DNA from: a virus
Strand: one strand, 5' to 3'
Virus record (IMG/VR): IMGVR_UViG_3300024274_000264
DNA: 64,000 bases
Under the pieces are notes generated by a model. The model made no database searches. It saw only the letters and a program-made list of their open reading frames with translations, and had not been told where the DNA came from. This document shows positions 5,767 to 55,563 of this stretch, one piece after another. Position numbers and translations under genes: made by a program. Numbering within the stretch: the first letter of the stretch is position 1; every line of letters starts with the position of its first letter.

Positions 5767-6552
5767 ATGGCAAACATTAAAAAAGGCAACAAACAAGAAG
5801 TATCGCTTACTCCCAAAACCACAAATTTACTAGAGCCTCAAGAGCAAGCCTCTTCCAAAAGAATGGCAATTATTTCTGGAATCACTAAAGAAATAAACAA
5901 AACCCGCGGAGAAAAGATTGCTTATAATCTTAAAACAGATGACGATGCACCAACTAATGTAAAAAATTGGTTCTCAACATCAGCAATAAAATTAGACTAT
6001 ATTATTTCAAATAAAAGAAATGGAGGAATTCCAGAAGGAAGAATAATTGAAGTTTTTGGAGAACCTTCTTCTGGGAAATCAACTCTTGCGCAAACAATAT
6101 GCGCGCAGGCTCAAAAAAATGGGGCAATAGCAGTTTATATTGACTCTGAAAATGCAACATCTGTGGAGAATCTTGCGATGCTTGGAGTCAATACCGACGA
6201 ATTAATTTTCGTCCAAGAACAATGTATCGAAGATACATTTCAATTAATAGAACAAATAATCACCTCTGTTAAAAATCAAGATAACAATCTGCCAGTAATC
6301 ATCGTGTGGGACTCAGTAGCGGCTTCAGTTTCTAGAACCGAGTTAGAGGCAACCTACGAACAACAACAAATTGGAATCAAAGCTAGAGCTCTTAGCAAAG
6401 GTATTATGAAAGTTAATCAGATCTTGAAAGATAAAAGAGTCACACTCTTACTTGTTAATCAGACAAGACAAAAAATTGGTATCTTACATGGAGATGCTTG
6501 TGTTTCACCAGACACAAAAATTAAAATAAGAACAAAAATGTCAAATGGATGA
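5767..6552 (+). CDS. recA: RecA/UvsX N-terminal extein plus 17-aa N-intein
   Basis: GGIPEGRIIEVFGEPSSGKST, YIDSE, WDSVAA, LLVNQ.R.KIG; ends GDA|CVSPDTKIKIRTKMSNG. Confidence 0.92.
   Translation: MANIKKGNKQEVSLTPKTTNLLEPQEQASSKRMAIISGITKEINKTRGEKIAYNLKTDDDAPTNVKNWFSTSAIKLDYIISNKRNGGIPEGRIIEVFGEPSSGKSTLAQTICAQAQKNGAIAVYIDSENATSVENLAMLGVNTDELIFVQEQCIEDTFQLIEQIITSVKNQDNNLPVIIVWDSVAASVSRTELEATYEQQQIGIKARALSKGIMKVNQILKDKRVTLLLVNQTRQKIGILHGDACVSPDTKIKIRTKMSNG
6499..6549 (+). mobile_element. atypically short split-intein N fragment (RecA)
   Basis: CVSPDTKIKIR is intein block A, followed by a stop after 17 aa. Confidence 0.8.
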
Positions 6553-8431
6553 AAAAGATTATTTTAATTTCAAATTTACAATTAAGAAAAATAAACCAAT
6601 TTTTGAAATTAAACTAAAAGAAGAGTTTAAAATTTGTAAGCAAAATTATAAAGATGGGGAAATGCCGATTTCGACATCTTCTATAAGATATTTTTGTTTA
6701 TATTTCGAAAATTTACAAATAGCTGAAAAACTTTACAAGTTTTATAAATATTTTTTTAATAAAAAAAATGCCTATAAATGGTTTTTAAACAATAGATTAA
6801 TTTCAACTGAAGAGATTTCTTTTTGTGTTGAGTATTTTAAAAAAATTGAAGAGAAAATGATTTTTAATCATAAAAAAGTTATAAATTCAGAAGAATACAG
6901 AAGCACTCTAAAAAAGTCTTATAACCATGAACTTCAGTCTAAAATTAAGAAAAAATTATATCAAAATGAAGAATATAAATTAAAAGTTTATAAGGCTACT
7001 CAAAATCCTGAAGTGAAAAAAAGAAGAGTAGAATCTTATAAAAAATGGTTAACTAATGGAGGTATAGAACAATTAAAAATTGCAGCAAATAAACCAGAAA
7101 GAATAAAAAAAATTAGATATTGGTCAAAATTTTATGCGAATAAACTTCAAAGAGATCTTAATTTCCCAAAAAAATACGAACTAAATTCGTGTAAAATGAC
7201 TAAAATTGAATTTATTGTTGGAAATATTTTAAATGATTTAAAAATTAATTGGGAATATGAATCTCCATTATTGTTAGATAATAAATGGTTTTATCCTGAT
7301 TTTTCTTTAGGAAATAATTTAATAATTGAATGTTATGGAGATTATTGGCACGCAAATCCTGATAATACAAAAAGGGTAGATAAAGAAGAAGTTTGGGAAA
7401 AAGATAAAACAAGAATTGACACACTTGTAACTGATGGCTATAAAGTTCTGACACTTTGGGAATCTGAAATACTAAAACTAAAAAAAAGAGAAATACAAGA
7501 AAAAATAGAAAGATTTATAAAAATGGATATAGAAAATAACGTTTACAAAGAAGAAGAAGTTACTTTAAAAGATTTATTTGAAAGGTATGGTATTTCATCA
7601 TTTGATGAAGTCGGTATGTTGTCATTGAATGATGATATTGAAATTGAAAGTTACGATATTGTTCAAAATAAAACTGTATGGAGTAAATTAACAGATCTAG
7701 TCGTAAAACCTTCTGTTGATTCTTTTTATAGTCTAGGTTCTTTAAAAGGAACCGCAAATCATAAAGTCTGGTTTAACAATGGATGGATAGAATTAAAAGA
7801 TCATCCTGACGCTGTTAAAGTTGACGGCAAAATTGATGTTCTAGATCTTTCAGTAGAAAATACAAATTGTTACTTAGCTGAAGGTCAAATAAATCATAAT
7901 ACTACTACTCCTGGTGGTATGGCAATTCCATTTGCTGCGTCAGTTAGATTACGAGTTTATACCCCACAAAAAATCAAAGAGCTTGTCGAAAAACAAGAAA
8001 TTATAAAAGGGATTCAAGTTAGAGTAGCAACAGTTAAGAATAAAGTCGCAAGACCTTACAGACAAGCAGAGCTGCAAATTCTTTATGATAAAGGTATAAA
8101 TGATTACGAAATTCTTTTTGATGACCTCAGAGCTTTTTGTGAAACCCCAAAATATAAAGAAAATAGAGAAAAATGTGCAATAAATGGTATCTGTGCTAGT
8201 ATTTCTGGTGCAGGAGCTTGGAAAAAAATTGAATTAATTGATTGTTTAACGGGAGAAGTAAAAGGAGATAAAAGTTTTTATAAAGTAGATTTCGTTACAG
8301 TTTTTAACGATCCAAAATATAAAGAGTATATTTTAATGTTGTGTGACGGTGCCTTTATTCTAAGAGATAATGAGAAAGATGAAATTTCTGTAACAACTGG
8401 CATTCCAACTGATGAGCACAGCCTGGATTAA
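6545..8431 (+). CDS. recA: Vsr-like endonuclease fused to C-intein and RecA C-terminal extein
   Basis: YPDF..IIECYGDYWHANP..WESE, then intein GTANH...DLSVENTNCYLAEGQINHN|TTTPGGMAIPFAASVRL..KNKVARP. Confidence 0.9.
   Translation: MDEKDYFNFKFTIKKNKPIFEIKLKEEFKICKQNYKDGEMPISTSSIRYFCLYFENLQIAEKLYKFYKYFFNKKNAYKWFLNNRLISTEEISFCVEYFKKIEEKMIFNHKKVINSEEYRSTLKKSYNHELQSKIKKKLYQNEEYKLKVYKATQNPEVKKRRVESYKKWLTNGGIEQLKIAANKPERIKKIRYWSKFYANKLQRDLNFPKKYELNSCKMTKIEFIVGNILNDLKINWEYESPLLLDNKWFYPDFSLGNNLIIECYGDYWHANPDNTKRVDKEEVWEKDKTRIDTLVTDGYKVLTLWESEILKLKKREIQEKIERFIKMDIENNVYKEEEVTLKDLFERYGISSFDEVGMLSLNDDIEIESYDIVQNKTVWSKLTDLVVKPSVDSFYSLGSLKGTANHKVWFNNGWIELKDHPDAVKVDGKIDVLDLSVENTNCYLAEGQINHNTTTPGGMAIPFAASVRLRVYTPQKIKELVEKQEIIKGIQVRVATVKNKVARPYRQAELQILYDKGINDYEILFDDLRAFCETPKYKENREKCAINGICASISGAGAWKKIELIDCLTGEVKGDKSFYKVDFVTVFNDPKYKEYILMLCDGAFILRDNEKDEISVTTGIPTDEHSLD
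7523..7900 (+). mobile_element. large split-intein C fragment (RecA)
   Basis: Contains block B (GTANHKV), block F (VLDLSV) and terminal HN followed by Thr +1; begins at in-frame ATG 7523. Confidence 0.8.
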
Positions 8432-15059: not shown

Positions 15060-16910
15060 ATGAGAGAGCCTAAAAAGTATGTGAATCTACATGCACATTC
15101 AAACGGAAGTATTGGCGATGCCATCGGACTTCCCCAGGATCATTTTGATTTTGCCCAAAAAAATGAACTTGGAGCTCACGCAATTACAGATCATGGAAAC
15201 ATGAACACTTTTTCTCACTCTTACAAATACTACGAGGGTCTTAAAAAAGAAGGTAAAGAATTCAAAATTCTTTATGGAATTGAGTCTTATTTTATTCCAT
15301 CCATATCGGAGTGGTCTTCTTTAAAAGAAGAAACTTCAAAAAGAAAAGAAATAGAAAAGCAAAATAAAAAAACAAATAAAGCAAAACCAAAAAAATCAAC
15401 AGATGAGTTTATTATTTTTGATGAAATTGAAGAAAAGCGAAAAGCAGAATTTATAGCAGAAGTTGAAAACTACGAACTTTTAAATAAAGAAGTTGCGCTT
15501 TTGAAAGACGCTGAAGGAAATGTTGAAACAACTGTTGTTGAAAATGAAGAAGAAACTAAATCCAACAAAGTTAGAGATCCTCTTCGTTCAAGAAGTCATT
15601 TAGTATTGCTTGCAAAAAACACAGCAGGTTTACATAGTTTGTTTAAACTAACTTCTCTTTCTTATAAAGAAGGATTTTATTTTTTTCCACGTATGGATTT
15701 CGACTTAATAAAGCAAAATGCTAATGGTAATATAATAGCAAGCAGCGCTTGTTTAGGTGGCGAACCAAATAAAATACTCATAAAACATTTTTTAGATCTT
15801 AACCTAAATGAAGAAGATTACAAGAGTGATGTCGATAAACTAAAAACTTACAAATTCGATCAGATTCAATCTGAACTAAAACTACTTGCCGAGCAATTTA
15901 TATACGTTTTAGGAGGCAATAAAGATAATTTTTTTCTTGAAATACAGTTTAACAAAGTTCCATATCAACATTTGCTGAATTATCATTTAATTGAATTATC
16001 AAAAAGAACTGGAATAAAAGTTATTGCGACCGCAGATTGCCACTATCCAAATCCCGAACACTGGAAAGAAAGAATTATTTATAAAACTCTCGCAAGAATG
16101 ACTGTCGATAAACTTAAAGAAATTGATCCAAATACAATTCCACAAAAAATTGAAGAGTTGGAACATGAGTTATATCCAAAGAATGCCACTCAAATGTGGA
16201 ACGCTTATAAAAACTATTGTGTTAAAGATTATCCTGAAATTTATACCGAAGAATATCATGAAATAGTTTGCGACGCAATTGAACGAACGCATGAAATTGC
16301 TTTTGAAGCAATTGACAAGAAAATAGAATTCGATAAAACTCCAAAACTTCCAAGTCTGAATAAGTTAATATCAGAAAATAAAATTAAAGATTTTAAATCC
16401 GATGGTTTGAATGAAGATGAAATAAGTTTTAACGAGCTCGTCGATTTGGTTATGTCTGGTCTAGAATCAAAAAAGAAAATTGAAGATACAAAATATGTTG
16501 ACCGCGCTCTTGAAGAACTTGACGTTATCAAACATTTAAAACTTGAAAAGTATTTTTTGACTTGTGCCCAAAGTCTTAATTTGATTGGTAAAAAAATGTT
16601 ATTAGGAGCTGGCAGAGGTTGTTTCTTACCAGGAACAAAAATACATATTCCTTCTTCAAAAAGAAAATTGAATATTGAAGAGTTTTCTTCTTCAAAAGAA
16701 GAATGGGTTTATACCCACGATGGCTCAATTCAAAAAGTTTTAAAATGTTGGGATCACGATCTTCAAGACGAAGAGATAGTAGAACTCGAATTTGATGATG
16801 GTACGATAATTTCTTGCACAAAAGATCATAAATTTCTTACGAAAAATCGTGGTTGGGTCGCGGCATCTGACTTAAAAGATGATGATGAATTCGAAAAAGT
16901 ATGTTTTTAA
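15060..16910 (+). CDS. dnaE: DNA polymerase III alpha, piece 1 of 4 (PHP domain; 520-aa extein plus IntN1)
   Basis: LHAHS, AITDHG, HLVLLAKN, ATADCHY, ends GAGRG|CFLPGT... Confidence 0.95.
   Translation: MREPKKYVNLHAHSNGSIGDAIGLPQDHFDFAQKNELGAHAITDHGNMNTFSHSYKYYEGLKKEGKEFKILYGIESYFIPSISEWSSLKEETSKRKEIEKQNKKTNKAKPKKSTDEFIIFDEIEEKRKAEFIAEVENYELLNKEVALLKDAEGNVETTVVENEEETKSNKVRDPLRSRSHLVLLAKNTAGLHSLFKLTSLSYKEGFYFFPRMDFDLIKQNANGNIIASSACLGGEPNKILIKHFLDLNLNEEDYKSDVDKLKTYKFDQIQSELKLLAEQFIYVLGGNKDNFFLEIQFNKVPYQHLLNYHLIELSKRTGIKVIATADCHYPNPEHWKERIIYKTLARMTVDKLKEIDPNTIPQKIEELEHELYPKNATQMWNAYKNYCVKDYPEIYTEEYHEIVCDAIERTHEIAFEAIDKKIEFDKTPKLPSLNKLISENKIKDFKSDGLNEDEISFNELVDLVMSGLESKKKIEDTKYVDRALEELDVIKHLKLEKYFLTCAQSLNLIGKKMLLGAGRGCFLPGTKIHIPSSKRKLNIEEFSSSKEEWVYTHDGSIQKVLKCWDHDLQDEEIVELEFDDGTIISCTKDHKFLTKNRGWVAASDLKDDDEFEKVCF
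16620..16907 (+). mobile_element. split intein N fragment 1 (96 aa)
   Basis: CFLPGTKI block A, CTKDHKFLT block B, GWV.A.DLK.DD then stop. Confidence 0.92.
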
Positions 16911-28481: not shown

Positions 28482-29504
28482 ATGTCCAAAAAATTAACAG
28501 ATGAAGAAAAAGTTCAAAAAATCATAAAAAATAAAAATATTAACGTCAAAGAAGTCATTAATTGTTATAGAGATTTGGAATACAGTTTACCCAAATTAAA
28601 GAAACAGTTTAATTTGGGTTTTAAAGAAAGTGTTTTGATATTAAAACAGAATAATATAAAGATTAGATCAATTTCAGAAAGTAGAAAAACAAATACGTTT
28701 AAAAAAGAAAATAAGGAAAATCTATTAGAAAAATATGGTGTGTCGAATGTAAGTAGTCTTGATTCTGTTAAAGAAAAAAAGAGAAAAACTTCTTTAAAAA
28801 ATTACGGAGTAGATAATATTTGGAAAACAAAAGATTATGGAATTAAAGCACAAGCTTCTAAAGAAAAGAAATATGGAATAAAAGCTATTCCTAACTTATA
28901 CGGAAAAGCAAATTATTTCGGATGGAAAAGTTCTACAGAAGAAGAAAAAAAGAAAAGGCTTCAAAATTTATGGTCAGAAAGTATTTTATCTTGGAATTCT
29001 TTAACAGAAGAACAAAAAACTAAAATAATTCAAAAACGTTCGAGAAAAATTGTTTCTTGTTATAATTCTTCGCTTGAACGTAAAATAAAAAATTCTTTAC
29101 AGAAATTAAATATACTATATAGCGAACAATTTTGGATAAACCGAAAAAGTTATGATTTTCATATTAAGATTTTTAATGTAAATTATGTATTAGAAATTAA
29201 TGGAGATTATTGGCATGCTAATCCTCTTTACTATAAGGAAAATGATTTTATTAACTATCCATTAGGTTTAATTAAAGTTAAAGAAATTTGGGATAAAGAT
29301 TTAATAAAAAAACAAAATGCGGAAAAATATGGTTATAAAACATTATATATTTGGGAAAGCGAATTGAAAAATAAATCTGAAATTGAAATTGAAAATCTAA
29401 TAAAAGAAAAACTTAAATTAAATAAAATCTCGTACAGTGCTCAAAATGAAAAATGTGAAAATTTTAAACATAAAAAAATAAAATTCATATCAAAAAAAAC
29501 ATAA
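28482..29504 (+). mobile_element. free-standing Vsr-like (putative homing) endonuclease
   Basis: EKYGV repeats, YDF, LEINGDYWHANP, IWESE. Confidence 0.8.
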
Positions 29505-30428: not shown

Positions 30429-31268
30429 ATGCTTGCAAAAGCAGATATCTACTATAAACAAAATTTATATAAACTAATAACGAAAGGTAATAAAGATGAA
30501 AATCCAAGACCGAAATATAAAGATGGAACTCCTGCGAATAGTTTGTTTGTAACACAAGTGTTTGAAGAATATGATATAGAAAATGGTGAATTGCCATTTA
30601 CAACACTTAGAAACACAGCAGTTAAATCAGGAATAAAAGAAATTTTTTGGATTTATCAACTTCAATCTTCCAAACTAGAAGATACAAAAAAACTTGGGAT
30701 TAATTGGTGGAATGAATGGGAAATTGGAAATGGAACAATTGGTCAAAGATATGGGGCAACAGTTAGAAAATGGGATTTAATGAATAAACTTTTGCATGGA
30801 TTAAAACAAAATCCATTCGGAAGAAGACATATCCTTAACCTATATCAAGAATCTGATCTTCTTGAAACTGAAGGTTTGTATCCTTGTGCATTTGAAACAA
30901 TTTGGTCTGTCCGAAAAGACTTAACCTCTAAAAACTATATACTTGACATGACTCTTATTCAAAGAAGTTCAGATTATATTATGGCCAACTGGATTAACAA
31001 GGCACAGTATTATGCTTTACAGTTAATGGTTGCCTCGGATCTTGGTTACAAACCAGGCAAATTCTGCCACTATGTTCATAATCTTCATATTTACGATAGG
31101 CATTTAAATGCGGCAAACGAAATCATAAAAAGAGAATCGTTACAAGAACAGCCAAATTTTACTTTAAAACAAAGCAAAAGTTTTTACGAGTTTAATATCG
31201 ATGATTTTGAATTCGCCAATTTTGATAAACCGCAAAAAATCAATTCTGAACTAGAGATAGCAATATGA
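30429..31268 (+). CDS. thyA: thymidylate synthase
   Basis: YG, GRRHI, LYPCAF, QRSSD, HIYDRH. Confidence 0.93.
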   Translation: MLAKADIYYKQNLYKLITKGNKDENPRPKYKDGTPANSLFVTQVFEEYDIENGELPFTTLRNTAVKSGIKEIFWIYQLQSSKLEDTKKLGINWWNEWEIGNGTIGQRYGATVRKWDLMNKLLHGLKQNPFGRRHILNLYQESDLLETEGLYPCAFETIWSVRKDLTSKNYILDMTLIQRSSDYIMANWINKAQYYALQLMVASDLGYKPGKFCHYVHNLHIYDRHLNAANEIIKRESLQEQPNFTLKQSKSFYEFNIDDFEFANFDKPQKINSELEIAI

Positions 31269-31642
31269 TAAACTACGACAAAACAAAAGAAGAGCTTCTT
31301 TCTATATTAAAAGATCCTTCATTTAAATCAAAGTTTGAAGAAGTCAAAAAGAAAATAGAACAAGAGATATTGGGAAACAAAAAACTTTTAGTAACTAACG
31401 TTTTTGAAAAATATAAACTAAGTTACCACTTAGATCCAAACTATAATAGCGGATTAATGCTTTATGGTTTATACACACTGTTAACTGAAAAAGGTATTCA
31501 GGAAAGAGTTTTGGGAGTTTCCTGTAGAGAATATTTAAAATTTGTTTCAAATAAAAACCCTATTATGATCGAGACAAAACCTTTTCAAGAGGATGAGTTT
31601 CCTTCAGAAATGAAAGTTGAAAACTTCGGAGATTGGATGTAA
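31265..31642 (+). CDS. hypothetical protein
   Basis: Coupled ORF. Confidence 0.5.
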   Translation: MINYDKTKEELLSILKDPSFKSKFEEVKKKIEQEILGNKKLLVTNVFEKYKLSYHLDPNYNSGLMLYGLYTLLTEKGIQERVLGVSCREYLKFVSNKNPIMIETKPFQEDEFPSEMKVENFGDWM

Positions 31643-32034
31643 AAATGGAAAATGATATAAAACAAGTTCTTGTGTGGAGAAAAGACTTAAATGTTAGAAA
31701 AGGTAAAATAGCTGCCCAACTTGCCCACGCAAGTATAAAATGGCTAACTCAAAGGATTAGAAACAGTCCTGAAAAAAAAGCTATTGATCTTTTAGATGAA
31801 GAAGAAATTTCCTGGATCGATGGCAATTTTAAAAAAGTTGCCGTTTATGTCGAAACAGAAAAAGAATTGATAGAATTGTATCAAGCAGCAAAAGAGACGG
31901 GGTTGACCGTAAATTTAATAACCGACGCGGGATTAACTGAGTTTCATGGACAGCCAACTAAAACATGCTTAGCTATAGGACCACACTCTAGCGAGAAGAT
32001 TGATCCGCTGACTAGAGAGCTAAAACTGTTATGA
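31633..32034 (+). CDS. pth2: peptidyl-tRNA hydrolase, Pth2 type
   Basis: KQVLV.RKDL...KGKIAAQLAHAS, DAGLTEF, TCLAIGP, LKLL. Confidence 0.92.
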   Translation: MDVKMENDIKQVLVWRKDLNVRKGKIAAQLAHASIKWLTQRIRNSPEKKAIDLLDEEEISWIDGNFKKVAVYVETEKELIELYQAAKETGLTVNLITDAGLTEFHGQPTKTCLAIGPHSSEKIDPLTRELKLL

Positions 32035-32489
32035 AATATAATATAAAACTCATTTGTGAAAAACTCAATGTGACGCACCCACAACATGATAAAATAATGG
32101 AACGTGTGTCCGAACTGAAAGCAGATGTTGAAAGTTTATTTAAAGATCAGGAATATCTGGATTTCCACTTAAAAAACAGAAACGAAGAAGCGACAGAAAA
32201 ATCAGCTTTTATCTTTTTAAGACATTTGCCAAAGTATACACTCTCATTAAGTTTTCAAAACCATGAGTTTTACATTGCTGAATATGGAGAATATTTGTCT
32301 GAAACAAAGATTGAAATAATGATAGCTAATGTTTTTAACATTAAGGAATATATCTTTAAAAAAATTCCAAATTATTTGAAATATAGAACTGGTGCATTTT
32401 CTCTTGACCTTATAGATTATGAATTTCCGATAACAGCTTTGCCAAAAATTCATATCAAAATAAATGAACAATGGAATGGCCTCTGGTAA
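32031..32489 (+). CDS. hypothetical protein
   Basis: Coupled ORF; C-terminal LPKIHI resembles the paralogue-family tail. Confidence 0.5.
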   Translation: MKYNIKLICEKLNVTHPQHDKIMERVSELKADVESLFKDQEYLDFHLKNRNEEATEKSAFIFLRHLPKYTLSLSFQNHEFYIAEYGEYLSETKIEIMIANVFNIKEYIFKKIPNYLKYRTGAFSLDLIDYEFPITALPKIHIKINEQWNGLW

Positions 32490-33874
32490 ACATAATGAAA
32501 CTAAAATCAAAAACATATAGAAAATATACTGGAAAGGTTTATGACCTTTCTGTTGAGAATAAAAGTTCGTATAACGTCGAGGGTTTTCCTGTGCATAATT
32601 CTGGTGCGGGATCTTTAGTTTGTTACCTTTTAGGAATTACCCAGGTTGATCCAATTAAACATGGACTTTTGTTTGAAAGGTTTTTAAGTAAAAAGAAAGC
32701 ATGTCTCGGAGAAGATTCTTGGGTCTTGACCTATACGGGTCCTAAACAATTAAAAAATATTAAAATCGGAGACCGAATTAAAACTCATACAGGAAAATAT
32801 TTTCCTACCGTGGCAATTGATCTAACAAAAGATCGTACAGACTGGTATGAAATTACGTATGGTTATTGGCTAAATCATACCAGTCTTGGTTTGAAAGGTT
32901 TTCATAGACCATTTTATAGCGTTGGAAAATTGATAGCTAGTTCAAATCATAAATTTATTACAGCTCAACAATTTAATTGTCCACATATACAAAAAATTCC
33001 TTTAGATGTAAAATATAAAGATGTATCTGTTGAATTTATAAAATCAGTAGTAGATAATAGTTTTACAAAAACTCAGCCAAGATTTTATGGGAATGGATCT
33101 GATAATAAAACTTGGGAAATTTTTTCTATCGAAAAAGGTAAAGTCCCATTAACTTTAATTGATATTAAATTGGAAGCCGACCATACATTTTGGGTTTCAG
33201 ATAAAAAAGATGGCGTGTATGTTTTATCCCACAATTCCTTACCTGACATTGATAGCGATTGTGCAGACAGAGAAGAGGCAATTAAAATTCTTATCGAGCA
33301 TTTTGGAGAAGAATGCGTATTACCTGTTTCAAACTATAACCAACTTCAACTTAAATCCTTAATTAAAGATTTGGCTAGGTTATACCAAATTCCATTTGAA
33401 GAAATCAATCCAATTACTCAAAAAATTGAAAAAGAAACACTTGACGAAGATAAGAAACAAGATGGTTTCGATCGAGGTGTTTGGTTTCTTTCTTATGAAA
33501 GTGCCGAGAAAAACTCTCCAACTTTTAACAAACTATTGGAAGATTATCCACAACTTGAAGCGAGCATAAAAGTATTATTCAAACAAATAAAATCATGTTT
33601 TACGGAGGACACATTACTGTTGACTAACAGCGGTTGGAAAAAATACTCTGAAATTACAGAGCAAGACAAGATAGCATTTATTGACAACGTTGGAGAAATT
33701 CAATATAGTTCAGACTTTTTTAAAGTCGAAAATGGAGAAAAAGAAGTTTACAAAATTGAAACTTTAGATGGAAAGGTTTTGGAACTAACTGAAGACCATT
33801 TAGTTCAAACCGATAAAGGTTGGAAACAGGTAAAAGATTTAACAAATGAGGATTCTCTAATCGGATGGATATAA
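32471..33874 (+). CDS. dnaE: DNA polymerase III alpha, piece 2 of 4 (IntC1-extein-cis intein-extein-IntN2; likely start ATG 32495)
   Basis: VHN|SGAGSLVCYLLGIT.VDP...FERFL; catalytic SLPDIDSD; ends KS|CFTED... Confidence 0.95.
   Translation: MEWPLVNIMKLKSKTYRKYTGKVYDLSVENKSSYNVEGFPVHNSGAGSLVCYLLGITQVDPIKHGLLFERFLSKKKACLGEDSWVLTYTGPKQLKNIKIGDRIKTHTGKYFPTVAIDLTKDRTDWYEITYGYWLNHTSLGLKGFHRPFYSVGKLIASSNHKFITAQQFNCPHIQKIPLDVKYKDVSVEFIKSVVDNSFTKTQPRFYGNGSDNKTWEIFSIEKGKVPLTLIDIKLEADHTFWVSDKKDGVYVLSHNSLPDIDSDCADREEAIKILIEHFGEECVLPVSNYNQLQLKSLIKDLARLYQIPFEEINPITQKIEKETLDEDKKQDGFDRGVWFLSYESAEKNSPTFNKLLEDYPQLEASIKVLFKQIKSCFTEDTLLLTNSGWKKYSEITEQDKIAFIDNVGEIQYSSDFFKVENGEKEVYKIETLDGKVLELTEDHLVQTDKGWKQVKDLTNEDSLIGWI
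32495..32599 (+). mobile_element. split intein C fragment 1 (35 aa)
   Basis: KVYDLSVE...YNVEGFPVHN followed by Ser +1. Confidence 0.92.
32702..33235 (+). mobile_element. contiguous mini-intein (178 aa, no endonuclease) in dnaE
   Basis: CLGEDSWV..., SSNHKF block B, DIKLEADHTFW...LSHN|S. Confidence 0.9.
33596..33871 (+). mobile_element. split intein N fragment 2 (92 aa)
   Basis: CFTEDTLLLT.SGWK, LTEDHLV, GWKQVKDL then stop. Confidence 0.92.
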
Positions 33875-34320
33875 AGCAATTTTTTTCTGAAGACTATGAA
33901 AAAGTAACTTTAGAAAAGTCTCAAGCTGTTTTTGAATTGTTTTATAGTTTGGTTGATCAGTTAAAAACTAGAAAAATTATACATTCGGAAAAATTGATAT
34001 TGCTTGAAGAATTAGATGTATTTGCTATTAGTTGTCAAGATATGTCTATTGAATTTTTACGCAAATGTAAGTTCTTATCCGAAAAAGAGATTCAAGAGAT
34101 GTTTGTTACTATTTATACAATTAGCGATGAAAAAGTTCTTACCCCACACGATACTTGGATTTGGATTAATAATATCCAACTAACAAATAAATTTAAACCA
34201 CAATTTTCTTTAGGTATAAATTATGATGGAATTGAACTCTATTCTTATCTTTTGGAAATAGAAAATCAAAAAATAATAGGTCTCAAGTTGGAGCGAGAAT
34301 TCGGCGATGAAACAGAATAA
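33865..34320 (+). CDS. hypothetical protein inserted between dnaE pieces 2 and 3
   Basis: Overlaps both flanking dnaE ORFs; no nuclease motif recognised. Confidence 0.6.
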   Translation: MDIKQFFSEDYEKVTLEKSQAVFELFYSLVDQLKTRKIIHSEKLILLEELDVFAISCQDMSIEFLRKCKFLSEKEIQEMFVTIYTISDEKVLTPHDTWIWINNIQLTNKFKPQFSLGINYDGIELYSYLLEIENQKIIGLKLEREFGDETE

Positions 34321-34441
34321 AATAATCTCAATTCAAAAAATTGGTAAGAAACCTGTCTTTGATATTCACCACAATATTCCAACAGGTGCTTTTATTGACG
34401 ATCAGCCTAATATAGTGACCGAAGCTGGATTAATTTCAAAT
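34307..34441 (+). mobile_element. split intein C fragment 2 (45 aa, ends SN)
   Basis: KIISIQKIGKKPVFDI...GLISN followed by Cys +1. Confidence 0.88.
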
Positions 34442-35533
34442 TGCGGTCGCCACGCTGGCGGCGTTGTCCTCACTGACTCGCCGATCGAAAACCAGAATAT
34501 GCCTCTGATTATTGGCGGCAAGGGTGAGAAAAGATCGCTCCAAACACCTTGGACAGAAGGTGTAAACTTCAGAATGCTAGAACATTTTGGATTTCTTAAG
34601 TTTGACTTTTTGGCACTTGGAACACTCCGTATTTTTGAAAACACGGTAAGAAAAATATTAAAAAAACAAACAGGAAGACAAGAATCCGAAATACCATTTG
34701 AAGAAGTTCAAAAATGGTTTAATGATCATTTGTCACCAGACAATAATCCAATGGATGATCTTAAAGTTTATGAAAACGTGTTTTGGAATGGAAATTTTAT
34801 TTCGATTTTCCAGTTCGTAAAACCAAACACACAAGATTTTATGAAAAGGATGAAGCCTAGATCGGTCAAAGATATTGCGATTGCGACTTCAATACACCGC
34901 CCAGGCCCACTAGGATTAAAAGTAGATAGAGACTTTTTAGCGAATAGAGCAAACCCAGATTTGATTAAATATGAACATCCATTCTTAAAAGAAGTTTTAG
35001 AACCAACAAGCGGACTCTTAATTTTTCAAGAACAGTTACAGTTAATTTATCATCATTTATGTGGAGTTCCTCTCGACGAAACAGATTCCGTTCGTAAAGC
35101 ATTTACAAAGAAAGAAATCAACAACAAGGAAAAAGCGGCAAAAGAACGTGAGAAGTTAAAAGCTGAGTTTGTAGAAAAAACAAAAACCTTTGCAGGTCTT
35201 GAAGAACAAAAGGCATCAAAGTTTTTTGATAAAATGGAAAAATTGGTTGCGTATTCGTTTAACCAATGTTTGCATGGAGATTCACTTGTAGAAACTCAAA
35301 ACGGATTTAAGAAAATTAAAGAGGTTATACCAAACCAAGATTTAGTCAATAGTGTCAATGGATTTGTAAAAGTAAAAAATAAGTTTGAAAATGGTGTGAA
35401 AAATTTGGTTAAAATTAAAACGAAGTCTGGTAAAGAATTAGTCTGTACGTTAGATCATAAAATTCAAACACCTAATGGCATGAAAACTGTTAAAGAAATA
35501 ATAGAGCAAAAGCTTCAAATTATAGTAAAATAA
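34307..35533 (+). CDS. dnaE: DNA polymerase III alpha, piece 3 of 4 (IntC2-extein-IntN3)
   Basis: ISN|CGRHAGGVV, KFDFLAL, IFQF, RPGP, IFQEQ, AYSFNQ|CLHGD. Confidence 0.95.
   Translation: MKQNKIISIQKIGKKPVFDIHHNIPTGAFIDDQPNIVTEAGLISNCGRHAGGVVLTDSPIENQNMPLIIGGKGEKRSLQTPWTEGVNFRMLEHFGFLKFDFLALGTLRIFENTVRKILKKQTGRQESEIPFEEVQKWFNDHLSPDNNPMDDLKVYENVFWNGNFISIFQFVKPNTQDFMKRMKPRSVKDIAIATSIHRPGPLGLKVDRDFLANRANPDLIKYEHPFLKEVLEPTSGLLIFQEQLQLIYHHLCGVPLDETDSVRKAFTKKEINNKEKAAKEREKLKAEFVEKTKTFAGLEEQKASKFFDKMEKLVAYSFNQCLHGDSLVETQNGFKKIKEVIPNQDLVNSVNGFVKVKNKFENGVKNLVKIKTKSGKELVCTLDHKIQTPNGMKTVKEIIEQKLQIIVK
35267..35530 (+). mobile_element. split intein N fragment 3 (88 aa, basic)
   Basis: CLHGDSLVET.NG, CTLDHKI block B, then stop. 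Confidence 0.92.
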
Positions 35534-35553
35534 TTGTATCTGGTTTTAGTCAA

Positions 35554-35691
35554 ATGCAAAAATGTATGATCTGTAATCAAGAATTTAAGGTTATAAGATG
35601 GAAAATATTACGAATTTGGGAAAGCGAGATTAATTCTGATTTTGATTCGGTTCTCAAAAAAATAGAAGCTTTTGTAAAGGAAAAAAAATAA
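35554..35691 (+). pseudogene. 45-codon remnant of a Vsr-like endonuclease between dnaE pieces 3 and 4
   Basis: MQKCMICNQEFKVIRWKILRIWESEI...; WESE tail matches the endonucleases at 6545 and 28482; TAATG overlap with piece 4. Confidence 0.7.
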
Positions 35692-35801
35692 TGCTAGACG
35701 AGATCGATTCTGTTGAGTTTTATGGTATTGAAGAAACTTATGATTTGGAAGTGGATCATGAAGACCATACTTTTTATGCTAATGATATTTCTGTTTCTAA
35801 T
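35691..35801 (+). mobile_element. split intein C fragment 3 (37 aa, strongly acidic, ends SN)
   Basis: MLDEIDSVEFYGIEETYDLEVDHEDHTFYANDISVSN followed by Ser +1. Confidence 0.92.
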
Positions 35802-36833
35802 AGCCACGCAATTTCTTATTCAATAGCTACTTTTCAATGCAGCTATCTTTTAACATATCATCCAGATGAATGGATAACAGCTTGTTTAGATTATGCCGCT
35901 CTTGAAAAGGGTAAAGTTGTTGGTCAAGAAGATCCCAAAGCTGTTGCAATGAGAGAGGCACAAAAACTTGGCTATAAATTCTCAAAACCAGATATTAACT
36001 TCTCAAGTGCGGGATATGAAATGCATCCATTTAAAGAAAAAACAATAATTCCAGGATTGACAACAATTGATGGAATTGGAGAAGCAGCGCTCGAAGAAAT
36101 TAACAGAAATAAACCTTATAAAGATATAAAAGACTTATTAATAAAAGAAGATGGTTCTTGGAAACATTCTAAATTTAATCGTAAAGGATTAACAAATCTT
36201 ATTTGCTTAGAGGCCCTCGATAGTTTAAATCTTGTTTCGCCAACTGGTGAATTATCAAATTACAAACAAGCGTTTAATGTTATTGTCGAAAATTTTGATT
36301 TATTAAAGAAAACTTCAGCAAAGAAGAAAAATAATAACATTCAACCAATTTTAGATGAACTAATAAAAAAAGAACAAGAATTAAAAACAGAAGATTGGTC
36401 AAGAGCAGAAAAAACTAAATATTGGCTCGAACTTGCAGGTAGCGCAGACTTAAGTTTAATTCTTGATCCAAAATATTTTGAAGCAATAAAAGAGATGAAT
36501 CTTATAAGCGTTGATGAGATTAGAGAAATCGATTTTCTTGAAGAAGGAGAAAAGAAAAAGATCACAGAACAAGTTTGGTTTATTTTAAGAAAAGCAATAT
36601 TAAAAACAACAAAAACAGGAAAAATTTACGCCGAACTCTCTGTAATTGGAGAAAAGTTTTCAGACTTAACAGTAAAAGTTTGGGACATAAGTCCAACAGA
36701 AAACTTCGAAGCGTACCCAGTGTACGAGGTTTATTGCGGATCAATTACAAAAGACAAATATGGACTATCAACCAAACTAGATAAAATTGCTTCTTTGTCA
36801 GAAATTTATGATTATCTTTTTTCTGGCAATTGA
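35691..36833 (+). CDS. dnaE: DNA polymerase III alpha, piece 4 of 4 (IntC3 plus C-terminal extein)
   Basis: TYDLEV...FYANDISVSN|SHAISYS, PDINFS, GL..IDGIG (HhH), C-terminal OB-like region. Confidence 0.93.
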   Translation: MLDEIDSVEFYGIEETYDLEVDHEDHTFYANDISVSNSHAISYSIATFQCSYLLTYHPDEWITACLDYAALEKGKVVGQEDPKAVAMREAQKLGYKFSKPDINFSSAGYEMHPFKEKTIIPGLTTIDGIGEAALEEINRNKPYKDIKDLLIKEDGSWKHSKFNRKGLTNLICLEALDSLNLVSPTGELSNYKQAFNVIVENFDLLKKTSAKKKNNNIQPILDELIKKEQELKTEDWSRAEKTKYWLELAGSADLSLILDPKYFEAIKEMNLISVDEIREIDFLEEGEKKKITEQVWFILRKAILKTTKTGKIYAELSVIGEKFSDLTVKVWDISPTENFEAYPVYEVYCGSITKDKYGLSTKLDKIASLSEIYDYLFSGN

Positions 36834-36869
36834 CTACAATTTCGAAGATTCATACTTATATGAGTTAAA

Positions 36870-38246
36870 ATGGCACAAGGTATAAAAAATAGAAAAATTG
36901 GTGATATTTTTATTGATGAAGGAAACAAACAAATAATCTATACATTAACAAAACTTGAAATTTTTAATGGTGAATTTGGTAATATCAATTCTGATATTTT
37001 AAACTTAATAGAGAATGAGACATTCGAAGTAGCAAACAAGGTTAATATTAAAAAAACAGATCGTGTGAAAAGTGCTGTATTAGTACAGTTAACACGAAAT
37101 AAAACTAAGCAAGAATATAACTTAGTTAGATATTTTGATAAAGAAATTAATTCAAAATCTGATATTCCTACATGGGGAGGATTAAGTCTAAGAGATGATT
37201 TTGATCTTAGGTTTGGGATTAAACCAAGACTAAAATCTGCTATTGCGGGGCAAGCATTATATCAGCCATCAAAATTTGACTTTTCTGAATTGTTCACAGA
37301 CACAAAATCAATTGTCGAAACGGACAGATTTCAAGATCCAAATAAAATTTATAATACTTTGTTAAAAAAAGCAAAAGGAGATAGAACTAAGTTTGGATTA
37401 GTTATTCTTAAAATTTTGCTTGGATTAAAAAATAATAATTCAATTACAATACCTGATGGTTCACGTTTTTTAAAAGAAATAAATATATATGTTTCAGAAT
37501 TTATTGTTCCGTTGATGATTGCAATGAATAAAACATCAATTATGTTTGATAAACCGATGCTGAATATTGCCTCTAAGGCAAACCAAATAGGTTATGATGC
37601 AGAAATAAAAGATTTAACTTCTGGAAAAAATTATTTGGTTTCTGTAAAGCAGGGCGGTAGTCGTAGCAAACATGGAGCCTATGGATCAATTGCTTTTATT
37701 GCAAAGATTTTATCTGAAAAAAGATCAGTTTTAGAAAAACGAATATCAAATTTTGATTTGTTTGAAAAACTTTTAGGTATACTTCTTGGAAATTCTTCTT
37801 CTGAAGAAGATGAGAAAAATATAATATTATCGTTAACAAAACGAAAGACTTATAAAAATTTAATTGCTGTTGCCTCTAAACTTGGAATAGACAATTCTCA
37901 AATTGATACAATTACGACACAATTAAGTTCGCCAAGTTTTAATTTCGATCAAAAGATTGAATTACTTAATAAATTTGCATTAAATGTTTATTCAAAACTG
38001 AATGAAAATAAATGGTTCAAAGAGACTACAAAAACTATTTTGCAACTTGTGAATTTCATTCAAGCAAAACTTCTTATAACATCAAATAAGAATGGCGACC
38101 TACAAATACTTGGTGTTGAAGTTAACACACTGGATGAAAATGAAATTGATTTTAGTGCCAAGAAAAGCTATTTTGGAAATAAGTTGGCTACTGGACATGG
38201 TGGGTTTTTACTAAAAGAAATCGAAAAAGAAACTTTAGAATCATAG
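36870..38246 (+). CDS. hypothetical protein, possible PD-(D/E)XK-like nuclease
   Basis: SEF..P...GYDAEI...LVSVKQG weakly resembles D..(D/E/S)xK. Confidence 0.45.
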   Translation: MAQGIKNRKIGDIFIDEGNKQIIYTLTKLEIFNGEFGNINSDILNLIENETFEVANKVNIKKTDRVKSAVLVQLTRNKTKQEYNLVRYFDKEINSKSDIPTWGGLSLRDDFDLRFGIKPRLKSAIAGQALYQPSKFDFSELFTDTKSIVETDRFQDPNKIYNTLLKKAKGDRTKFGLVILKILLGLKNNNSITIPDGSRFLKEINIYVSEFIVPLMIAMNKTSIMFDKPMLNIASKANQIGYDAEIKDLTSGKNYLVSVKQGGSRSKHGAYGSIAFIAKILSEKRSVLEKRISNFDLFEKLLGILLGNSSSEEDEKNIILSLTKRKTYKNLIAVASKLGIDNSQIDTITTQLSSPSFNFDQKIELLNKFALNVYSKLNENKWFKETTKTILQLVNFIQAKLLITSNKNGDLQILGVEVNTLDENEIDFSAKKSYFGNKLATGHGGFLLKEIEKETLES

Positions 38247-53268: not shown

Positions 53269-55563
53269 ATGAACGAAGAGCAAAAACAAAAAACCGCATT
53301 AATAACTGGTGTTACTGGGCAGGATGGTTCTTATCTGGCTGAGTTTCTTTTAGAAAAAGGGTATAGAGTGATTGGAATGAAAAGAAGAACAAGTATCATT
53401 TCTACTTCTAGGATAGACCACATTTATTCAAATCCAAATTTTATTCTAGAGTATGGAAACATGAGCGACGCATCTTGTTTTTGGAATCTATTGTCAAAAT
53501 ATAAACCTGATGAGATTTATAATCTTGCAGCTCAATCTCATGTTAAAACATCTTTTGATGTTTCAGAAGAAACTCTTGATATAGATGGCGCAGGAGTTTT
53601 AAAACTACTTAATGCGAGTAAAGCAATTATTCCAAATGCTAGAATTTACCAAGCGAGTTCTTCCGTTACAGGGGAGACACCAGTTCTTATCAGAAAAAAT
53701 AAAAATGAAATAAAATTAGAAAAAATAGAAAATTTAGTTAACCCAAAATTAGAAAAAACGGAATATTCAAATCTTGAATGTTTAACTATTGATAGAAAAA
53801 CATTAAAATTAAAATGGTCTCCAATCGCTTATGCTTTTACTCATAAGTCATCAAATGTTTATAACATAAAAGGGACTGGTGGATTTAATATTGGAATAAC
53901 AGGCAATCACTCTGCTATGATTATTGATAAAAATGGAGAATTAGTTGAAAAGAAAATTGATGATATAAAAATAGGAGATTATCTACTTTCTTACATGTCT
54001 TTCAATAATAATTTTGAGGAAAAGGAAAGAGTTTATCCTATTTTTGATTTGAGAAAATTTGCGAATTCAAAAAAATATATAACAAGATCCAATAGTCAAA
54101 TTGATTCATTAGTTATTAATGATGATATTTGTAGATTAATTGGATTTTATTTGGCAGAAGGAAATGTTTTTATAAAAGAAAAGAAAACATACAAAACAAC
54201 TTTTACTTTTCACATAAAAGAAAAATATTACACGGACGATATTAAAAATATTGTAAAAAACAACTTTGGAATTGATTGCTGTGAATCAGAATTCGTTTCA
54301 AGAAATACTCGGAAAATTCAATTTTCAAGCAAGCAATTTGCTAAATTTTTATTAGAACAATTTAAAACAGGATCAAAAAAGAAAGAAATTCCAAGTTGGA
54401 TATACAATTTGCCGAAATCTGCATTTGTTAATTTAATGCAAGGATATGTTGGAGATGCCAAAATTTCAAAAAATGAAATTAGATATACTTCAGTAAATAA
54501 ATCAATGTTACAAGCTTTACTTTATATTTCAAAATTAAATGGAATGTCTCCAACTTTTTTAGATAGAAAAACAGGTGCATTTGATCTGTTATTTTCTTCA
54601 AAAGATAAAAAAGAAATATTAGGTACAACTGAAATAGATTTAAAGTTTAAACAAGCCAATGGAACATTAATTGAATCAAATGTTTTCAACAATTTAGCAC
54701 CAACGTATATAAGAAAACTTAACGGGTATAAAAAAAATATTTCAAAAGAAAAAATATTAAATACTTTAGAAAAATTAAAAACGAAAACTGAGTTGTCGGA
54801 AAATTTAATAAAATTAGAGAGATTATCCAACTCAGACATTCATATTGTGAAAATTAAAAAAATTGAAAAACTTAAAGAGGAAAATATTAATGTTTACGAT
54901 CTTCATGTGCCTGAAAGTCAAATTTTTATTGGCGGAAATTATCCGTTAATTTTACACAATAGCGAAATTTTCGGGACAAACCCAGAAGTTCCTCAAAATG
55001 AAGAAACTAAATTTATGCCTGCGTCACCTTACGCTTGTGCAAAAGTGTTTGCCCATAATATATGCATAAACTATAGAGAAGCATACAAGATGTTCATTTG
55101 TCCAGGAATTTTACAAAATCATGAAAGCCCAAGAAGAGGGGAAACGTTCGTAACAAGAAAGATTACTTTAGCTGCTGCAAAAATAAAACTTGGAATGCAA
55201 TCCAAATTAGAACTTGGAAACTTAGACGCAAAACGGGATTGGGGCTATGCAAAAGAATATGTTGAGGCTATGTGGTTGATGCTACAACAACCTAAACCAG
55301 ATGTTTTTGTTATTGCAACAGGAGAAAATCATTCTGTTAAAGAATTTGCAGAAACGGTTTTCGAGTATGCTGGTTTAGATCTTAAAGATCATCTTGTGAT
55401 CAATCCACGACTTTTTAGACCACACGAAGTGCCATGTCTAAAAGGTGATTATTCAAAAGCGAAGAGAATTCTTGGATGGGAACCAAAAGTTAAATTTAAA
55501 GAGCTCGCGCAAATTATGTATAATTCAGATTTAGATCTTCTAAAAAAAGGAATAATCAAATGA
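53269..55563 (+). CDS. gmd: GDP-mannose 4,6-dehydratase interrupted by an intein
   Basis: [29 protein letters not shown]|intein|[27 protein letters not shown]. Confidence 0.95.
53662..54960 (+). mobile_element. Ser-initiated intein with LAGLIDADG homing endonuclease (433 aa)
   Basis: [13 protein letters not shown] block [10 protein letters not shown] and LMQGYVGD motifs, VYDLHV...ILHN|S. Confidence 0.92.

Follow-up and report, generated by a model that had tools for sequence, protein, structure and literature searches.

A viral DnaE gene fractured into four pieces by three split inteins, one of them with reversed charge polarity

Introduction

Split inteins are known to break several phage genes, DnaE among them, into two halves, between which a homing endonuclease gene lies (Dassa, London, Stoddard, Schueler-Furman, Pietrokovski 2009, PMC2677866). 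Here, we analyze a locus of this kind in which DnaE, the DNA polymerase III alpha subunit, consists of four open reading frames (ORFs) broken by three split inteins, all on the plus strand. It lies in a stretch of 64,000 nucleotides, referred to below as the window, from the IMG/VR virus record IMGVR_UViG_3300024274_000264.

Split inteins differ in the charge of their N-terminal (IntN) and C-terminal (IntC) halves. In gp41-1 and gp41-8, IntN is positive and IntC is negative (PMC2677866), and the polarity of gp41-1 is opposite to that of NpuDnaE (10.1101/546465). Charge swapping has been tested for orthogonality: swapping the charges of two strands did not abolish cross-splicing of NpuDnaE, but engineered charges made NpuDnaB halves orthogonal (10.1101/546465). 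The inteins gp41-1, gp41-8, IMPDH-1, and NrdJ-1 are experimentally orthogonal, and four fragments have been ligated using gp41-1, IMPDH-1, and NrdJ-1 (PMC11168065). A library of 15 orthogonal split inteins has also been reported (PMC7090010). An earlier note on the window had described three split intein pairs between positions 32471 and 35801 and proposed that the inverted charge of the third might serve as a specificity code.

Results

The virus record is 390,884 bp long and has direct terminal repeats; the window covers its bases 197141-261140, read on the minus strand. The window is AT-rich throughout, with a G+C content of ~30%, and nearly all its genes are on its plus strand. DnaE is made of piece 1 (15060-16910), piece 2 (32471-33874), piece 3 (34307-35533), and piece 4 (35691-36833). 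The last three ORFs have Pfam matches to DNA_pol3_alpha, the finger domain, and HHH_6 (HhH), together with Hint/Intein_splicing matches. Piece 1, located 15.5 kb upstream of piece 2 and beyond the region covered by the earlier note, is the N-terminal part of DnaE. Cutting these ORFs at the intein boundaries yields IntN1, IntC1, a contiguous 178-residue mini-intein, IntN2, IntC2, IntN3, and IntC3, and leaves a predicted spliced product of 1292 residues. A scan of positions 31000-37500 for promoters and terminators gave signals no better than chance.

The exteins read as consecutive parts of one polymerase. Extein 1 (15060-16619) carries the PHP domain (PF02811, 1.7e-25) and positions 2-65 of the Pol III alpha domain (PF07733), and ends in GAGRG. 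Extein 2a (32600-32701), running from SGAGSLV to FERFLSKKKA, aligns to residues 417-458 of Taq Pol III alpha, and extein 2b (33236-33595) runs from SLPDIDSD, with the catalytic aspartates, to KQIKS. Extein 3 (34442-35266) contains the end of the Pol III alpha domain (PF07733 positions 205-260) and the finger domain (PF17657, 2.9e-30), while extein 4 (35802-36833) contains the HhH domain (PF14579, 2.2e-11) and the C-terminal part. Pfam profile positions run on continuously from piece to piece, and intein-free relatives read straight across the junctions: SFNM-SHAISYS at site 3 in L006, which is 89% identical and in which exteins 3 and 4 are continuous, and KQIKS-TGKH at site 2 in P0045. The flanks of the mini-intein are likewise contiguous in Taq Pol III alpha, since query position 76 aligns to residue 458 and position 256 to residue 460.

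The intein elements display the expected hallmarks. IntN1, IntN2, IntN3, and the mini-intein all start with Cys1. Block B reads TKDH, TEDH, and TLDH in the three IntN (TxxH) and SSNH in the mini-intein, and the C-terminal Asn and +1 residue are HN|S in pair 1, SN|C in pair 2, SN|S in pair 3, and HN|S in the mini-intein. Each IntN stops 20-30 residues past TxxH and each IntC begins one strand ahead of block F. The splits thus fall between blocks B and F, the canonical endonuclease-insertion point. Judged by the Pfam matches and by the continuity of the exteins, the intein elements are real and not chance matches.

We estimated the ratio of nonsynonymous to synonymous substitution rates (dN/dS) against L006 for IntC1, IntN2, IntC2, the exteins, and the ORF lying between IntN2 and IntC2. 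Values of 0.044, 0.065, and 0.092 for IntC1, IntN2, and IntC2 compare with 0.02-0.09 for the exteins (0.023 for extein 2b, which is 96% identical). By this measure, the intein halves are under purifying selection comparable to that on the exteins. A search of the complete 391-kb genome for other replicative polymerases returned no family-B polymerase and one sub-threshold family-A match; with no other clear candidate, DnaE is probably the phage replicase and apparently its only one.

The halves of pair 1 are separated by 15.5 kb of unrelated genes. IntN1 (16620-16907, 96 residues, net charge -8) matches PF14890, and its closest solved intein is NrdJ-1 (8ubs, 4.3e-7), followed by cyanobacterial DnaE inteins. 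IntC1 (32471-32599, 43 residues, net +3), which also matches PF14890, has a Lys-rich start and ends in VHN before a +1 Ser; we found no significant relative of it among solved structures. Its start is ambiguous: a second ATG at 32495 would give 35 residues, and relatives start at MKLKSK there.

Piece 2 contains an element that was absent from the earlier note, the contiguous mini-intein (32702-33235, plus strand), which starts with Cys1 and ends in SHN before a +1 Ser, its place in the numbering of Taq Pol III alpha being between residues 458 and 460. At the equivalent DnaE site the allele is split in L006 (3740-6279) and in L008 (2955-5491); the halves flank a 311-residue endonuclease ORF, which in L006 has PHROG matches of the endonuclease type. 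The ends of the mini-intein are 45-50% identical to these split alleles, and the elements form a natural cis/split allele pair. Both L006 and L008 have another cis intein, inserted where PDID meets SDCADRE. In L007 (4171-5559), the intein at this PDID | SDCADRE position is broken after block F, leaving an 18-residue C-terminal piece, through either a frameshift or a natural split of atypical form.

In pair 2, IntN2 (33596-33871, 92 residues, net -10) matches the Pfam families Intein_splicing (5e-8) and Hint (6e-8), and its nearest solved match is the Spl DnaX mini-intein (3.9e-6). IntC2 (34307-34441, 45 residues, net +1) has a Lys-rich start and ends in ISN before a +1 Cys. The extra loop that the earlier note had seen in it is present, as ~8 additional residues between blocks F and G, and is a family feature because dozens of homologues share it. 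The relatives P0002 and P0087 are 91-97% identical, the P0002 homologue being 91% identical. The gap between the halves holds a 151-residue ORF (33865-34320, plus strand) with a homologue at the equivalent place in L006. This ORF evolves fast: BLASTP identity to its L006 homologue is 31% and global alignment identity is 34%, where the exteins are 89% identical, and its dN/dS is 0.47. An ORF of 140-160 residues lies between IntN2 and IntC2, overlapping both, in the window and at L006:6270-6689, L007:5550-6008, and L008:5482-5970. Neither the 33865-34320 ORF nor another gap ORF, at 32031-32489, has a Pfam or PHROG match, and the two have no detectable homology to each other. On the strength of these searches, the 151-residue ORF is not a recognizable homing endonuclease.

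Pair 3 is of a different kind. IntN3 (35267-35530, 88 residues, net +7) has gp41-1 as its best solved match (6qaz, 5.5e-6). IntC3 (35691-35801, 37 residues) ends in VSN before a +1 Ser; it matches gp41-1 with an E-value of only 1.2, which by itself is not significant, and its best match is Spl DnaX (0.0012). The halves of gp41-1 have 88 and 37 residues. IntC3 belongs to a large family in which D18, E20, H26, S36, N37, and S+1 are invariant. The absence of a penultimate His is therefore a family trait, since Ser-Asn is invariant, and the cyanobacterial DnaE split intein likewise lacks this His. From these matches, the N-positive/C-negative polarity of pair 3 looks inherited from a gp41-1-like lineage.

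A 45-residue ORF (35554-35691, plus strand) lies between the halves of intein 3 and resembles the C-terminus of a 340-residue homing endonuclease encoded elsewhere in the window (28482-29504, phrog_3339; E-value 0.001). At the same spot, L007 and L008 have an intact 330-residue ORF. The 45-residue ORF is thus probably the C-terminal relic of a homing endonuclease that once stood between the intein 3 halves. In L006, which has no intein 3, pieces 3 and 4 are fused as a single 671-residue ORF (L006:6679-8694); intein 3 was therefore either recently gained or precisely lost. Across the site-3 family (L009-L088), the first intein residue is Ser or Cys, and the gap between the halves ranges from 63 to 3526 bases, which argues that the endonuclease has been lost many times.

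We next considered charge. The counts on which the earlier note had relied were all reproduced: IntC3 has six Asp, six Glu, and no Lys or Arg (net -12); IntN3 has 16 Lys, no Arg, and nine Asp or Glu; IntN1 and IntN2 are acidic; and IntC1 and IntC2 have Lys-rich starts. Its description of the IntC-extein-IntN order of pieces 2 and 3, of the terminal Ser-Asn of IntC2 and IntC3, and of the Ser, Cys, and Ser +1 residues also held. For strand charges, the pairing strand of an IntN was taken as the 20 residues that precede TxxH, and that of an IntC as the stretch leading up to block F. Counted by hand, they are -8 and +5 for IntN1 and IntC1, -3 and +5 for IntN2 and IntC2, and +3 and -6 for IntN3 and IntC3; a script gave +6 for IntC1, -3 for IntN2, +3 for IntN3, and -6 for IntC3. 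Of the six wrong combinations within the locus, four bring like charges together. The two attractive ones are IntN1 with IntC2, which would skip piece 2, and IntN2 with IntC1, which would cyclize it. Charge thus sets pair 3 apart from pairs 1 and 2 but does not set pair 1 apart from pair 2. It cannot be the whole code because these two pairs share a polarity and because IntC1 and IntN2, which attract each other, are borne on one chain.

How charge behaves across relatives was assessed by scanning IMG/VR with an alignment of piece-4 homologues. Of the 138 relatives obtained, 80 loci were retained, and these gave 42 distinct cognate site-3 IntN/IntC pairs. Cognate strand charges are anticorrelated (Spearman -0.77, n = 42), with 33 pairs opposite, 2 the same, and 7 neutral, and both polarities occur inside this one homologous family. 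On a tree built without either strand, the IntC sign flips about six times, but supported branches require just two of these flips. At no IntC flip did the IntN sign change in the wrong direction, a test of low power with two independent pairs on supported branches. Dozens of clusters from metagenomes, and of contigs from IMG/VR, encode a chain with an IntC ahead of an IntN. In 42 distinct natural chains of this kind, in which the IntN belongs to another intein than the IntC and among which piece 3 of the window is counted, the two charges are like in 15, unlike in 22, and neutral in 5 (the L018 row was mis-registered by the pattern and is possibly neutral), and those that end in a site-3 IntN split evenly, 12 like to 12 unlike. 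Charge complementarity therefore marks cognate partners, and like charges in cis are not a rule.

Inteins and intein-like elements also occur at other places. A GDP-mannose 4,6-dehydratase (53269-55563) has a contiguous intein with a weak LAGLIDADG match. RecA is present as two ORFs (5767-8431), the second of which has ~450 residues with weak intein matches before the C-terminal part of RecA. Further Intein_splicing matches lie in the genome beyond the window.

Discussion

The locus is a multiply fractured DnaE of the known fractured-gene kind. The account we favor, with a probability of about 0.78, is that its four pieces are trans-spliced, that correct pairing stems from diverged intein lineages, and that polarity is inherited, with no dedicated code. 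The four polypeptides would be extein 1-IntN1; IntC1-extein 2a-[mini-intein]-extein 2b-IntN2; IntC2-extein 3-IntN3; and IntC3-extein 4. The mini-intein would remove itself, and each of the three split inteins would dock with its own partner and splice in trans, giving the ~1292-residue polymerase. Correct pairing would most likely result from the different interfaces of separate, long-diverged lineages. These appear distinct because IntN1 is nearest to NrdJ-1 and DnaE inteins, IntN2 to Spl DnaX, and IntN3 to gp41-1, and identity between pairs is just 22-39% for IntN and 19-24% for IntC. Complementary strand charges could speed up and stabilize cognate encounters, and the polarity of pair 3 may add repulsion against the four like-charged wrong combinations. 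Since the three pairs are different, intact, and selected, in what is apparently the only replicase, correct pairing must predominate in vivo, and we infer with fair confidence that the pairs are effectively orthogonal there. Our reading of splicing, and of its freedom from cross-reaction, is drawn from the anatomy, motifs, continuity, selection, charge counts, and covariation seen in the sequences.

Several points weigh against this account. Synonymous sites are saturated, which makes the dN/dS ratios rough, although all are far below 1. IntC2 has no solved relative by sequence and its loop is unusual. The charge covariation rests on few flips (two well-supported, six on the best tree). Finally, selection needs just enough correct product, so that some cross-reaction or cyclization could be tolerable. 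In one alternative, the set is only partly orthogonal, with some cyclized piece 2 or some product without piece 2 being tolerated as long as a modest amount of correct polymerase is made. The electrostatic compatibility of IntN1 with IntC2 and of IntN2 with IntC1 fits this possibility, and Pinto 2020 (PMC7090010) ascribed residual signals to non-specific electrostatic interaction of halves. However, we consider it unlikely, given the low identity between the pairs and the finding that comparably distinct families do not cross-splice in vivo or in vitro (PMC11168065).

It is more doubtful still that the charge inversion of pair 3 evolved as a specificity code, as negative design against cross-reaction and cyclization. 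The like charges of piece 3 would suit such a code (the start of IntC2 is about +5 by hand, or +4 in the 91%-identical P0002, and the IntN3 strand +3), as would the preponderance of like-charged wrong combinations in the locus. In addition, IntN2 and IntN3, the most alike of the IntN (39%), differ chiefly by Glu-to-Lys changes on the pairing strand, and engineered charges could make NpuDnaB halves orthogonal. Yet piece 2 is self-attractive (IntC1 +6, IntN2 -3), and the 42 natural middle pieces have no excess of like charges. Polarity tracks intein lineage, the clade of the window being N-positive/C-negative regardless of the element upstream; two-piece genes with both polarities were already known (PMC2677866); and swapping strand charges left NpuDnaE cross-splicing intact (10.1101/546465). 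The reversed polarity described in the earlier note is therefore present but not new (PMC2677866, 10.1101/546465), and its reading as a code is poorly supported in this locus, where pairs 1 and 2 share a polarity. We regard as very improbable the remaining alternative, in which the pieces stay unspliced and either form a non-covalent complex or represent a decaying gene in a phage that uses the host polymerase. Phage genes split by endonucleases can work unspliced, as in the broken gp43 and NrdA cited in PMC2677866, and the endonuclease at site 3 is reduced to a relic. Against this, all catalytic intein residues are intact, constraint on the intein halves equals that on the exteins, and the breaks lie inside conserved motifs, such as GRG-SGAGS, whose rebuilding needs a peptide bond.

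Joining of the pieces of this multiply fractured DnaE in the cell would mean that an ordered, one-pot ligation of four fragments already exists in nature. The locus would then be useful as a supply of mutually compatible split inteins and for testing what stops middle pieces from cyclizing. In the literature we found no natural protein joined from at least three pieces by split inteins, only engineered systems, with many subscription journals outside our coverage. Assembly of this sort in a natural protein may not have been described before, even though sequence data contain many such loci. More tentatively, and with somewhat less than even odds, this locus and its relatives would be the first described case of natural tandem protein trans-splicing, in which one essential enzyme is made from four or five polypeptides, and would provide ready-made orthogonal sets validated in vivo. 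The site-3 family would then offer a natural series of compensatory charge flips with which to gauge the role of electrostatics in partner choice. The charge idea itself is already published, and our survey speaks against its holding generally. Any practical benefit is modest, given that four-fragment ligation and a set of 15 orthogonal split inteins are available; the multifragment toolkit envisaged in the earlier note has in fact been realized with related inteins (PMC11168065, PMC7090010).

Among known systems, the fractured phage genes (PMC2677866) are the closest. In both cases, an essential replication gene, DnaE included, is split at the endonuclease-insertion point, its parts lie on one strand, and both charge polarities occur. 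The free-standing homing endonuclease that lies between the halves of the published genes has an intact counterpart at site 3 in L007 and L008 and a probable relic here. The published genes are broken in two, with more only hinted at (part of an extra intein at the DnaE-1 locus), whereas here there are three split inteins and a cis intein. This locus also differs in having two middle pieces, one gap filled by 15.5 kb of other genes, and one gap with a non-endonuclease ORF. Its insertion sites differ from that of cyanobacterial DnaE, as PMC2677866 noted for phage DnaE loci.

The individual pairs likewise have known counterparts. Pairs 1 and 2 have the polarity of NrdJ-1, IMPDH-1, and Npu/Ssp DnaE, with IntN acidic and IntC basic. 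In its C-terminal part, IntN1 matches both NrdJ-1 and the Ssp/Npu DnaE inteins, and pair 1 resembles the cyanobacterial DnaE split intein in the wide genomic separation of its halves. Pair 3 shares with gp41-1 the 88 + 37 format, the +1 Ser, the basic IntN strand, and the acidic IntC start, but it interrupts DnaE rather than the gp41 helicase, IntC3 ends in SN rather than HN, and the overall similarity is distant. As a whole, the locus resembles the engineered tandem trans-splicing systems (PMC11168065, PMC7090010), in which middle fragments have the order IntC(a)-extein-IntN(b) and which link four fragments through three orthogonal split inteins. Those sets are man-made and tested, whereas the present set occurs in nature, would act on an essential enzyme, and is known from sequence alone.

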